Shown one piece after another: positions 9,868 through 11,452 of a DNA stretch of 34,970 bases. The notes beneath the pieces are model-generated. The model saw only the letters and a program-made list of their open reading frames with translations, did no database searches and was not told the origin of the DNA. The DNA is from a virus (lineage: Duplodnaviria; Heunggongvirae; Uroviricota; Caudoviricetes), in IMG/VR virus record IMGVR_UViG_2529292908_000012; one strand, written 5' to 3'. How positions within the stretch are numbered: position 1 is the stretch's first letter; each line of letters opens with the position of its first letter. Made by a program: the position numbers and the translations under genes.

Positions 9868-9892
9868 AAAAAAACCCGGCACAATGACCGGG
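9868..9892 (-). terminator. Rho-independent terminator between the 421-aa gene and the giant ORF
   Basis: On - strand: stem cccgg/ccggg, 8-nt loop, then TTTTTTT, followed directly by the giant ORF's SD and ATG. Confidence 0.5.
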
Positions 9893-9924
9893 TATCAGGA
9901 AATAGTATTAACGGGAATGGTGAA

Positions 9925-11190
9925 TTACTGCGCGTAATTCTGTTTCAGACCACGGATAAACTCAGATGCAGAGGCCGCGCTATCATCCCTGGCCTGTTCC
10001 TCCCTGGCCTTTTGAATACGGAGAAAATTCGCATACCCGTGTTCCAGCAATTTCTGATTCTGAGGCTCCAGCATTTCTGGCTGACGGGAGGCCACTTCTC
10101 TGGCAAATGCCTGCTTATCCGGATCATCACCCGCCCAACTGGTAATCCCTTGTTGAATTTTTTGCTGCTGAATTTGCTGCTGATACTGCGGCAGTCCCAT
10201 CGAAGCATAATATTGCGTCACTGCTCCCTGCGCATCACCGCCGTCCTGTGCAACCTTTATCGCTACCTGGCTGGCTCCTTTCTGAAGTTGATCCGCAGAA
10301 AGTCCCTGCTGCTTCGGCGTGAAATAGCCGAAATTTTTCGAAATTTCCGCGAATTTACTGCGTTCCCTGACAAGCTCAACAGCCTTATCAACAGGCACCG
10401 CCAGCACGGTTTGATCATCAGGATGTGCACTGCCGTATTCCGTAACGGGTTTATGTGCTGTAGAGCCATCACTGTATGTGAGATCAAGGCCGATAAGTAT
10501 GTACCCTTCCTGCTGTGCCGGTACTATACTGCCAATCCTGGCCTCTTTTATCGTCTTTTTCCCGGTTGAATCGGGCATGCCAATACGCTGTTGCAGTTCC
10601 GGGCCAAACACCCCGGAAAGGACATCAAGATTCTCCGGCGTATTAAGTGAAGCGATAGCCCTGTCTGGCTTGTCATCAAAGATTTTTTGCAGGTTGTTCA
10701 CGGCCTGACCCGCTTTCGCTACATAGCCATCATTCGCCATCAGCCTCAGCGGATTACCCTCTGACAACTGGCCGTAAAGACGCATTGCTGCATCCCGATC
10801 GCCAGCATCCACAGCCTTTCCAAGCGCCGCCATCACAGGCTGATCGCGCGCCAGCATATCGTTATACTCAAGCCGTCGCTGGTTGTATTTCTGCATCCGG
10901 AGTCGCTGCTGCTCCATACCCAGCGACGCATTCCGGTAATTCTGGTTGGCGTTAAACTCCCTTTCCTGCAGTGCATAATTACGGTCGTCGACTTTGGCTC
11001 TGTAATCAAAGTTCCGCTGATCAACGTCTTTATTATGTTCAAACTGCGACTGTGCAAATTCAAAATCGCGCTCGTTATTTTTCTGTTGTTGAGCAAGCTG
11101 TGCTTCTCGCAAACCAAGTTCCTTACGACGGGTCATTGCCTGGTCAACCGTGCTGAATCCGGCAAGTAAACCCTGTGCAAATCCGCTCAT
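9925..11190 (-). CDS. 421-aa Gln-rich, predicted coiled-coil protein co-oriented with the giant ORF
   Basis: ORF with SD aaggag 7 nt upstream; starts 8 nt after the stop of the 83-aa gene; QQQIQQQKIQQG stretch. Confidence 0.8.
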   Translation of the reverse strand: MSGFAQGLLAGFSTVDQAMTRRKELGLREAQLAQQQKNNERDFEFAQSQFEHNKDVDQRNFDYRAKVDDRNYALQEREFNANQNYRNASLGMEQQRLRMQKYNQRRLEYNDMLARDQPVMAALGKAVDAGDRDAAMRLYGQLSEGNPLRLMANDGYVAKAGQAVNNLQKIFDDKPDRAIASLNTPENLDVLSGVFGPELQQRIGMPDSTGKKTIKEARIGSIVPAQQEGYILIGLDLTYSDGSTAHKPVTEYGSAHPDDQTVLAVPVDKAVELVRERSKFAEISKNFGYFTPKQQGLSADQLQKGASQVAIKVAQDGGDAQGAVTQYYASMGLPQYQQQIQQQKIQQGITSWAGDDPDKQAFAREVASRQPEMLEPQNQKLLEHGYANFLRIQKAREEQARDDSAASASEFIRGLKQNYAQ

Positions 11191-11200
11191 TCACCACTCC

Positions 11201-11452
11201 TTAAAACAAAGAACCAGCAATACCACCTATGACAGCACCAATAGCCGCACCGGGGAGACCACCAACAGCAGCGCCCATAGCTGCACCCGTACCAATTCCC
11301 GTGCCGATATTCTGTTTGTTCTGCGCTTTCTGTTGCGCCGCCATCTGTTTGTTCGCGGCCTCAATTTCTTCACGTCGTCTGTCGGCATCACTTATTCCCT
11401 GTAATGCCTCACGCCGCGACTGATTCGCAATATCCAGTAAACCGTATCCCAT
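11201..11452 (-). CDS. 83-aa protein with coiled-coil N-terminus and C-terminal glycine-zipper membrane segment
   Basis: Strong SD (aaggggg) upstream of ATG; C-terminus GTGIGTGAAMGAAVGGLPGAAIGAVIGGIAG. Confidence 0.7.
   Translation of the reverse strand: MGYGLLDIANQSRREALQGISDADRRREEIEAANKQMAAQQKAQNKQNIGTGIGTGAAMGAAVGGLPGAAIGAVIGGIAGSLF

Follow-up and report, generated by a model that had tools for sequence, protein, structure and literature searches.

A probable ejection-protein cassette in a 933W/Sp5/phi24B-type prophage, with a giant polyvalent protein predicted to share its N-terminal domain with N4-type virion RNA polymerases

Introduction

Short-tailed Shiga-toxin (Stx) phages spread Shiga-toxin genes. 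Here we describe three adjacent genes, encoding proteins of 83, 421 and 2784 amino acids (aa), in a prophage on a stretch of viral DNA of 34 970 nucleotides (IMG/VR record IMGVR_UViG_2529292908_000012), which at its full length is called the window below. The trio is among the most conserved late genes of these phages, yet it is annotated as 'hypothetical', 'bacteriocin' or 'LPD5 domain protein'. The closest described relatives are ORF78, ORF79 and ORF80 of Sp5 (VT2-Sakai), with products of 83, 421 and 2793 aa (Mondal et al., 2016; PMC5155283). In-frame deletion of ORF79 or ORF80 abolishes both plaque formation and lysogeny and can be complemented; the mutants package DNase-resistant DNA and their heads look normal (PMC5155283).

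The corresponding proteins of phi24B have been studied by electron cryo-microscopy and virion proteomics in a 2026 preprint (bioRxiv 10.64898/2026.04.10.717836). Each virion is estimated to hold ~ 19–35 copies of the giant protein, gp47, and ~ 30–56 of the 421-aa orthologue, gp48; gp50 and gp51, encoded by the two genes upstream, are put at tens of copies. No position could be derived from the structure for any of the four, gp47 and gp48 are not seen in the maps, and the ordered tail and neck are fully accounted for by proteins other than gp47 and gp48. Unassigned density in the adaptor lumen vanishes after ejection. The preprint proposes gp47 as an ejection protein, is silent on the role of gp48 and mentions N4 solely for its T=9 capsid. 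In N4 and DEV, whose cassette has been dissected experimentally, the small protein forms channels in bilayers and its 12 N-termini occupy the adaptor lumen, in full virions only; the N-terminal domain of the giant N4 gp50 is likely membrane-spanning and is placed beside the tunnel protein gp51, to which it probably binds (PMC12633501; PMC11445570). A literature search found no paper that links the Stx-phage and N4 cassettes.

We propose that the three genes form the distal part of an ejection (internal-virion) protein cassette of a 933W/Sp5/phi24B-type prophage, and that its giant member carries polyvalent effectors; we put the probability of this reading at roughly 0.78. The genes were already known as uncharacterised Stx-phage genes in the databases, and the giant had been proposed as an ejection protein in the one preprint. 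New here are the breadth of the synteny, the case for membership of the 83-aa protein, the homology of the giant's N-terminus to that of the N4 virion RNA polymerase (vRNAP), as judged by profile comparison, and the geometry of the cassette, including a terminator-like element.

Results

Organization and conservation of the three genes

The genes for the 83-aa protein (11201–11452), the 421-aa protein (9925–11190) and the 2784-aa polyvalent protein, hereafter the giant (1502–9856), lie on the minus strand, where a first-pass annotation of this DNA had placed them. They are orthologues of Sp5 ORF78 (ECs1240), ORF79 (ECs1241) and ORF80 (ECs1242) and of phi24B gp49, gp48 and gp47, and match PHROG 594, 601 and 616 respectively from end to end. 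Full-length identity to the phi24B and VT2-Sakai orthologues is 92.8%, 82.9% and 90% in the same order (tblastn). A purine-rich Shine–Dalgarno sequence (SD) stands 4–7 nt ahead of each ATG (GGGGG, GGAG and GGAG), which bears out the strong SDs reported for the first two genes. The gap between these two had been given as 8 nt; it is in fact 10 nt (TAA GGAGTGGTGA ATG; spacer at 11191–11200, minus strand) and holds the SD of the 421-aa gene. The 421-aa stop and the ATG of the giant are separated by 68 nt (71 nt with the stop codon). On the same strand, this spacer contains the stem plus T7 that had been noticed earlier, an intrinsic-terminator-like hairpin (ACCCGGT-CATTGT-GCCGGGT, then the T7 run; 9868–9893), and right behind it the giant's GGAG (9862–9865), 5 nt before the ATG at 9856.

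The start of the giant is recorded differently elsewhere. RefSeq/GenBank records of VT2-Sakai (our locus L138, position 8067) and phi24B (L137, position 5149) begin at an ATG 39 nt upstream, inside the terminator stem. This codon was made by an A-to-G change in the stem; the window has ATA (9890–9892) and a third lineage also lacks it. From the sequences, the conserved GGAG-N5-ATG is probably the true start and the upstream ATG a mis-called one.

Co-occurrence across genomes, which had been suggested as a check, was found almost without exception. In all 46 close IMG/VR loci that hold the three genes, the order and the 10-nt gap are invariant, and in the Sepvirinae the trio lies downstream of the central tail-fibre gene with unchanged order and spacing. 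Among 1.84 billion representative proteins, relatives of the 421-aa protein form 74 clusters, mostly of 400–580 aa and 22–40% identical. We fetched 82 loci of distant members by means of a sub-family alignment and single distant proteins. An open reading frame (ORF) of 78–87 aa, with an MGYG... N-terminus and a glycine zipper ending in ...SLF, lies 6–12 nt upstream in 78 of the 80 loci that could be tested. Where at least 6 kb of downstream sequence was available, a long same-strand frame (1800 to more than 3350 codons) comes after the 421-aa-type gene in 65 of 72 loci, directly adjacent in 42 of the 65 and behind an insert of 0.5–2.8 kb in the others. The natural unit is larger than the trio: it is a five-gene block, a point missed by the first-pass annotation, and its upper two genes are deleted in the window. 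Aeromonas phage phiARM81mr and Vibrio phage douglas 12A4 carry the whole block after the tail-tip fibre gene, with products of ~ 210, ~ 125, ~ 80, 466–566 and 3026–3190 aa.

The giant protein

On sequence evidence, the N-terminal ~ 380 aa of the giant and the N-terminal domain of N4-type virion RNA polymerases are homologous. The domain covers residues ~ 45–425 (8582–9724, minus strand), corresponds to residues ~ 109–439 of the N4 vRNAP and is conserved in distant giants. Against the single N4 sequence the hhalign probability was 91.6–93%; an alignment of 61 giant N-termini matched N4 gp50 residues 114–444 at 92–93% (E ~ 4e-7 to 8e-7). A reversed sequence reached 0.5%, shuffled or reversed controls 1.1% at most, and 12 global plus 12 local (20-residue block) shuffles scored no higher than 21.9, compared with 57 for the native sequence. 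Against a profile of eight Schitoviridae N-termini the probability rose to 97.5% (E 7.7e-12, 326 columns). A word-indexed search with the N4 domain returned three fragments only and gave way to tblastn against phage records. BLASTP between the giant and N4 gp50 is not significant, and the Pfam vRNAP/N4_RNAP domains that N4 gp50 shows are absent from the giant. Comparison of the giant's second HExxH region, its CLCA-like region and its C-terminal region with N4 gp50 by hhalign was likewise not significant. A weak BLASTP alignment surrounds HEIIH in the giant and HELVH in N4 gp50, where an HExxH domain has been assigned to residues 2130–2448 (Iyer et al., 2017; PMC5512222); a metallopeptidase common to both proteins is only a lead.

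A Gly/Ala-rich, zipper-like stretch, GAALGAAMGAPFGAAAG (giant residues 406–433; 8558–8641), ends the N4-like domain. It gives a weak Pfam Gly-zipper match (E 0.08), aligns with the Gly-rich GALYGFGSAG of N4 gp50 and could pack against the zipper of the 83-aa protein.

The remainder of the giant carries several domains of polyvalent proteins, all encoded on the minus strand. LPD5 (residues 1047–1190), a CLCA_X-like zincin region (1172–1427, with HEWFH at 1274) and LPD1 (1351–1430) follow one another at 5567–6718; a MuF-C domain (1740–1832) lies at 4361–4639, and LPD38 (2467–2672), at 1841–2458, falls within a conserved C-terminal part of ~ 630 residues. The Pfam scores are 161.8 bits for LPD38, 147.4 for LPD5, 80.8 for LPD1 and 61.3 for MuF_C (cut-offs 27–27.6), whereas the CLCA_X-like region, at 153.8 bits, is below its subfamily cut-off of 260. 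LPD38 is restricted to phage polyvalent proteins, and an RNase-like (PBECR) fold is predicted for MuF-C (Iyer et al., 2017; PMC5512222). In the phi24B preprint MuF-C is instead described as a peptidoglycan-digesting metallopeptidase (bioRxiv 10.64898/2026.04.10.717836). This conflicts with Iyer et al., and the two HExxH motifs of the giant lie outside MuF-C, the second (HEIIH, residue 1541) upstream of it. The C-terminal ~ 630 residues are 96–99% identical among E. coli prophages, and the C-terminal part of the giant matches the C-terminus of PHROG 10089, 'DarB-like'. In distant giants the N-terminal ~ 400 residues, ~ 1484–1680 and the C-terminal ~ 630 are conserved and the remainder is variable. 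A sequence search of the PDB with the giant gave nothing credible, and no lysozyme or transglycosylase domain was found in it. Pfam and NCBIfam did not reproduce the AAA+ ATPase hint (COG1483) of Mondal et al., even when segments were searched at E ≤ 1, and we rejected it.

The 83-aa and 421-aa proteins

In the 83-aa protein, a polar, conserved N-terminal half (MGYGLLDIANQSRREALQG...) is followed by a C-terminal glycine-zipper hairpin that ends in ...GGIAGSLF. Within the last 36 residues Gly occupies every fourth position from G52 to G80, that is seven consecutive GxxxG, so the glycine zipper described at this C-terminus is real. It is the sole strongly hydrophobic segment among the three proteins (Kyte–Doolittle 19-residue mean 1.7), and the 83-aa protein is the only member of the five-gene block with such a segment. 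The Pfam model Gly-zipper_YMGG (PF13441) scores 26.7 bits, below its gathering threshold of 28.9, with the motif itself present; the class IIc bacteriocin model Bacteriocin_IIc (PF10439) scores 19.3 bits against a cut-off of 27.1. RefSeq records name the protein 'bacteriocin'. It has no signal sequence, lipobox or double-glycine leader, and its N-terminus, MGYGLLDIANQSRRE, is not a leader but is conserved as part of the mature family. In PADLOC-DB the 83-aa protein has two matches (E 0.004–0.007), both on its low-complexity part, and the 421-aa and giant proteins have none. Gly-zipper_YMGG/OmpA proteins and class IIc bacteriocins share with it repeated GxxxG in a short hydrophobic helix-turn-helix; what sets it apart from them is a family-specific polar N-terminal half and a fixed place in a virion-gene cassette. 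In one database protein, P0132, the N-terminal 45 residues of the 83-aa type are joined directly to a 421-type protein. Most of the zipper is gone and the C-terminus is apparently frameshifted; it probably comes from a decayed prophage and is not a natural fusion, and we did not use it as evidence.

The 421-aa protein is helical and has no hydrophobic segment. Its AlphaFold2 model (27-sequence alignment; predicted local distance difference test 77, predicted template modelling score 0.44) comprises an N-terminal GLLAGF motif, a helix of residues 4–128, an alpha/beta core at ~ 130–290 and a helical C-terminal part; the family motifs are GLAxGFLAGF at the N-terminus and, in the alpha/beta core at the centre, VTYxDGSTAxKPVTE. 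We estimate that the predicted 125-residue helix would be ~ 19 nm long, of the order of the periplasm. The protein had been described as a coiled coil. The long helix of the model agrees with this, but heptad periodicity along it is weak: it is not significant, being matched by 6% of shuffles, and is clearest at about residues 85–130. Pfam, NCBIfam and PADLOC gave no match for the 421-aa protein, a PDB search with the family profile gave nothing credible, and no solved or predicted structure outside the family resembles its fold.

The phi24B proteome also bears on the 83-aa protein. Its orthologue gp49 gave 6 counts in the batch digest and was set aside as a probable contaminant on account of its 'bacteriocin' annotation (bioRxiv 10.64898/2026.04.10.717836). 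When the preprint's formula is applied to 6 counts in 83 residues, with the 12-copy portal (101 counts in 724 residues) as reference, ~ 6 copies result, similar to gp54, which is accepted as structural. The signal is likely an underestimate, because gp49 offers few convenient tryptic peptides (four of 7–13 residues) and its hydrophobic C-terminal peptide of 37 residues contains no K or R. The dismissal of gp49 as a contaminant rests on its annotation, not on the data. In gel slices the maximum for gp48 falls one slice above the 45-kDa capsid protein and that for gp47 in the uppermost slice, from which we read that both are mostly unprocessed in the virion.

The terminator-like hairpin

The hairpin in the spacer ahead of the giant gene has a stem of 7 pairs, 5 of them G–C (9893..9874), a loop of 6 nt and the T7 run (9874–9868). 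Alone it folds at −11.6 kcal/mol, and it has the form of an intrinsic terminator, a G+C-rich stem-loop with a U-tract directly behind. Close relatives have 10 distinct spacers with three versions of the stem (ACCCGGT/GCCGGGT, GCCCGGC/GCCGGGT and GCCCGAC/GTCGGGC). Pairing is held in 100% of cells over the 10 variants, two pairs change on both sides, and a slid partner abolishes the pairing; covariation support is modest because the compensatory changes represent few independent events. The GGAG of the giant is invariant in all 10. In distant relatives, unrelated 12-bp hairpins with T-runs occupy the same junction in 17 of 26 distinct spacers.

The same geometry is found in N4. On its coding strand gp52 (150 aa) is followed after a 10-nt gap by gp51 (644 aa) and, after a 100-nt spacer, by gp50 (3500 aa). 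This spacer opens with the hairpin AAAAGCCC-TTCG-GGGCTTTTTT, which we read directly from the sequence; a terminator scan did not flag it, probably because the extended stem absorbs the T-run. Of six further Schitoviridae, five (KP8, inbricus, Piffle, OLIVR1 and RHph_Y38) have a hairpin with a T-run right after the stop of the gp51-like gene, and that of Piffle was annotated as a terminator by its depositors. Because unrelated hairpins fill the same junction in distant relatives and in the Schitoviridae, a terminator-like element just ahead of the giant gene is, as far as sequence can tell, a recurrent property of such cassettes. The same recurrence strengthens the idea that the terminator may attenuate expression of the giant, which we regard as plausible.

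Several points limit the case for the hairpin. Terminator-like matches are not enriched in the region (22, compared with 16.5 ± 3.9 in shuffles), and some distant relatives, with spacers of 0–52 nt, have no hairpin at the junction. In intact lambdoid Stx phages the late operon is read by Q-modified polymerase, which ignores intrinsic terminators (lambda and 933W Q), so the hairpin may work chiefly on polymerase without this modification, or may stabilise the upstream message from its 3′ side. For the spacer as a whole, folding is not significant (RNAfold, z = −1.09); since both it and the regional enrichment are unexceptional, the case for the hairpin rests on its conservation. Strong attenuation in lytic growth is not indicated, because gp48 exceeds gp47 in the virion by only ~ 1.6 to 1. 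The three cassette genes of DEV are transcribed as one RNA (PMC11445570), so termination there would be partial at most. We suggest that the hairpin is a conserved partial terminator or RNA-stability element whose most likely effect is to reduce or insulate the giant's expression relative to that of the upstream genes.

The junction is also a site of length variation. Several distant lineages have 0.5–2.8 kb of extra DNA between the mid-size and giant genes, with small ORFs or, as in phiARM81mr, unannotated (13401–15260 of locus L135; also loci L082, L089, L091, L095–L097, L111 and L115–L134). From these sequences the junction just past the terminator position looks like an insertion hot spot.

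The prophage around the cassette

The region matches 186 phage records, nearly all of them short-tailed Stx phages of the Sepvirinae. Deletions were mapped against the intact phage Lyz12581Vzw and the closest IMG/VR prophages (99.3–99.9% identical). One deletion (junction at ~ 11622–11635, where the flanking matches overlap by 6 nt) removed ~ 1.7–2.5 kb and left the initial ~ 36 codons of lom fused with the final ~ 46 codons of the ORF77-like gene upstream of the 83-aa gene; the 46-codon remnant of this ORF77/phi24B gp50-like virion-protein gene, fused to the lom start, lies at 11462–11602 on the minus strand. This deletion is absent from the nearest IMG/VR contigs (99.3–99.9%) and from the nearest complete E. 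coli genomes (99.9%). By a second deletion (14441–14442) the lysis genes now abut the middle of the nozzle gene, and the terminase, portal, capsid, adaptor and lateral-fibre genes are gone. The prophage also lacks ORF76 and ORF77, the two upstream internal-protein genes, as well as lom, hok/mok and half of the nozzle gene. With terminase, portal, capsid and most tail genes lost, the cassette of the window is probably a silent, recently stranded and non-functional remnant.

ARAGORN found no tRNA in the window, and no Q gene or stx was found. Their usual place, 18300–20900, holds a HigB/HigA-like pair (18649–18918 and 18911–19228, plus strand), a Fic/DOC-family gene (19279–19773, minus strand) and a Hok-like ORF of 70 aa (20171–20383, minus strand). 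An intact gene for a NanS-p-type esterase with an N-terminal DUF1737 lies at 16399–18309 (minus strand). In phi24B a DUF1737-type N-terminal domain plugs the capsid hexons as a decoration protein; the capsid gene of the window prophage is gone.

Discussion

The first-pass annotation had noted a loose resemblance of the trio to podoviral ejection or internal-core protein sets. Virion-internal orthologues in phi24B and Sp5, synteny beyond E. coli, the apparent homology of the giant's N-terminus to that of N4 vRNAP and the shared layout with N4 all support this resemblance. In the mechanism that we propose, the 83-aa protein would leave the virion first, after release of the tail needle, and insert its glycine-zipper hairpin into a membrane as an oligomer. 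The 421-aa protein, with its predicted 125-residue helix, would follow and oligomerise into a conduit across the periplasm. The giant would come next, led by its N-terminal domain, and help to cross the inner membrane. In place of N4's polymerase, it would bring an effector cargo into the cell: the CLCA-like zincin, LPD5, LPD1, MuF-C/PBECR and LPD38. For the small and mid-size proteins we derive these roles from position, size and composition, no similarity to N4 gp52 and gp51, T7 gp14 and gp15 or any solved structure having been detected; the action of the hairpin is put forward in the same spirit.

A number of observations do not favour an ejection cassette. Ejection of the 421-aa and giant proteins is argued indirectly, by analogy. 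The hydrophobic segments of the giant, at residues 181–200 and 2436–2459, are weak. The 421-aa family does not align with N4 gp51 (hhalign probability 0.16%), BLASTP finds nothing between the 83-aa protein and N4 gp52, and for neither protein was sequence or fold similarity to T7 gp14 or gp15 or to any solved structure detected. The comparison with N4 is a weak negative, because the small and mid-size ejection proteins cannot be aligned even across parts of the Schitoviridae (PMC11445570). The mass-spectrometry signal of gp49 is weak, and a deletion of ORF78 is not listed among the defective Sp5 mutants, which implies that the gene is dispensable in the laboratory (PMC5155283). Finally, the cassette of the window is intact, yet its prophage is unable to build particles.

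The last but one of these points would be accommodated if only the 421-aa and giant proteins are ejected and the 83-aa protein acts in the cytoplasmic membrane of the producing cell, for instance as an assembly chaperone or anchor for hydrophobic parts of its partners or as a modulator of lysis or superinfection, and merely contaminates virion preparations. The tail-anchored design of the protein would suit this, as would the authors' classification of its 6 counts in phi24B as contamination. We nevertheless judge it unlikely: the 83-aa gene stays with its partners in 78 of 80 distant loci, with a strongly conserved N-terminus; the count per residue corresponds to ~ 6 copies per virion, in the range of the accepted gp54 and likely too low; and the protein at the same position in N4, gp52, is a proven pore-forming virion protein with its N-terminus in the adaptor lumen. 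A different view follows from the Sp5 genetics. The ORF79 and ORF80 mutants, which package DNA into normal heads, bind no anti-tail-fibre antibody, and the authors concluded that the two proteins are needed to form the tail (PMC5155283); the phenotype suggests a part in tail assembly or stability, instead of or in addition to ejection. The two proteins, both abundant in virions, might then be mainly tail-assembly or head-completion factors, the giant possibly an AAA+ ATPase, that remain in the particle rather than being ejected as a conduit. This phenotype fits both explanations, since internal proteins that thread the portal and tail can stabilise a tail without being part of it. The ordered tail and neck of phi24B are fully explained by other proteins and contain neither of the two, Pfam and NCBIfam do not support the COG1483/AAA+ hint, and the N-terminal domain of the giant appears homologous to that of N4 gp50, which is ejected. 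On balance we hold a pure assembly role to be quite improbable.

The first-pass annotation had considered a membrane-targeting toxin or defence cassette equally possible, and carriage of a toxin, bacteriocin or anti-phage system as a moron would indeed account for the RefSeq name of the 83-aa protein, for its sub-threshold Bacteriocin_IIc and Gly-zipper matches and for the zincin-like and RNase-like domains of the giant. The analysis largely refutes this, and we give it very little credence. The PADLOC matches are at E 0.004–0.007, on low-complexity stretches of the 83-aa protein; the bacteriocin match falls well short of its cut-off (19.3 against 27.1 bits), in a protein that has neither signal sequence nor double-glycine leader. 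In all relatives the genes share one orientation and are closely coupled within the late structural operon, two of the three are essential for infectivity, and their products are found in virions.

An ejection cassette therefore remains our preferred reading, and through the link to the experimentally dissected N4/DEV cassette a concrete, testable role can be assigned to each gene. The link accounts for two of them being essential and suggests that excluding the 83-aa protein from the phi24B virion proteome was a mistake. It also suggests a modular build for giant ejected proteins, in which a common N-terminal delivery domain carries interchangeable cargo. A recurrent terminator ahead of the giant gene would be a simple rule for spotting such cassettes in other phages, and would serve the study of how the dosage of a 300-kDa cargo is set. 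More tentatively, the 933W-type and N4-type cassettes may descend from one ancestral ejection cassette, with a shared N-terminal domain that couples to the tunnel and passes through the membrane, a swapped cargo (polymerase versus counter-defence effectors), an ancient terminator that sets the protein ratio, and the 83-aa protein as the pore former that leaves first, its N-terminus forming the lumen density of phi24B. We regard this wider scenario as possible but rather doubtful as a whole.

Comparison with known systems

Sp5 (VT2-Sakai) and phi24B share with the window the gene order, the 10-nt gap and the arrangement of hairpin, SD and ATG. Ejection proteins of the T7 and P22 type, which are usually matched by size and synteny (PMC8954989), resemble the window cassette in general plan: T7 gp14-gp15-gp16 and P22 gp7-gp20-gp16 are likewise clustered downstream of tail genes, rise in size and have a helical middle member without transmembrane helices. 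They show no sequence or fold match to the window proteins. The gp14-like proteins have 181–240 aa and mostly 4–5 predicted transmembrane helices (PMC8954989), compared with 83 aa and one hairpin in the window; the large member of the type has transmembrane regions, where the giant shows just its two weak segments. The giant of the window is 2–4 times larger than gp16-like proteins and has no lytic transglycosylase domain.

In Bcep22-like phages two other proteins come ahead of the giant 'DarB-like' virion protein. Burkholderia phage JC1 has a similar size series, of 196, 510 and 4515 aa, and all three proteins are virion-associated. Its gp67 (encoded with gp68 at 1906–4039 of our locus L139) is the Gly/Ala-rich 196-aa protein and ends in ...GGILGSLLKKIF, and the N-terminus of its 510-aa virion protein gp68, GIGAFAQGLMQGMQ, recalls GLAxGFLAGF. 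These resemblances to the 83-aa and 421-aa proteins are not statistically significant, and hhalign detects no relationship between gp68 and the 421-aa family (2.4%). Polyvalent proteins such as Bcep22 gp75, JC1 gp69 and P1 DarB (Iyer et al., 2017) combine, as the giant does, several LPD and effector domains in one polypeptide encoded among virion genes; in contrast to the DarB type, no helicase or methylase domains were found in the giant.

A close parallel outside the Stx phages is provided by N4 gp52-gp51-gp50 and DEV gp73-gp72-gp71, each consisting, as in the window, of a small membrane-active, a mid-size helical and a giant protein. N4 also shares the 10-nt gap between the first two genes and the T-run hairpin after the mid-size gene. 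Both N4 and phi24B have T=9 capsids, and in both the giant is invisible in the virion maps. The systems differ in that the small protein of the window is half the size of N4 gp52 and a pure glycine zipper, that intact relatives of the window have two further small virion proteins ahead of the trio, and that the giant is present in ~ 19–35 copies in phi24B (gp47) compared with ~ 4 in N4. Where the N4 giant carries an RNA polymerase, that of the window carries LPD5, a CLCA-like zincin, LPD1, MuF-C and LPD38.

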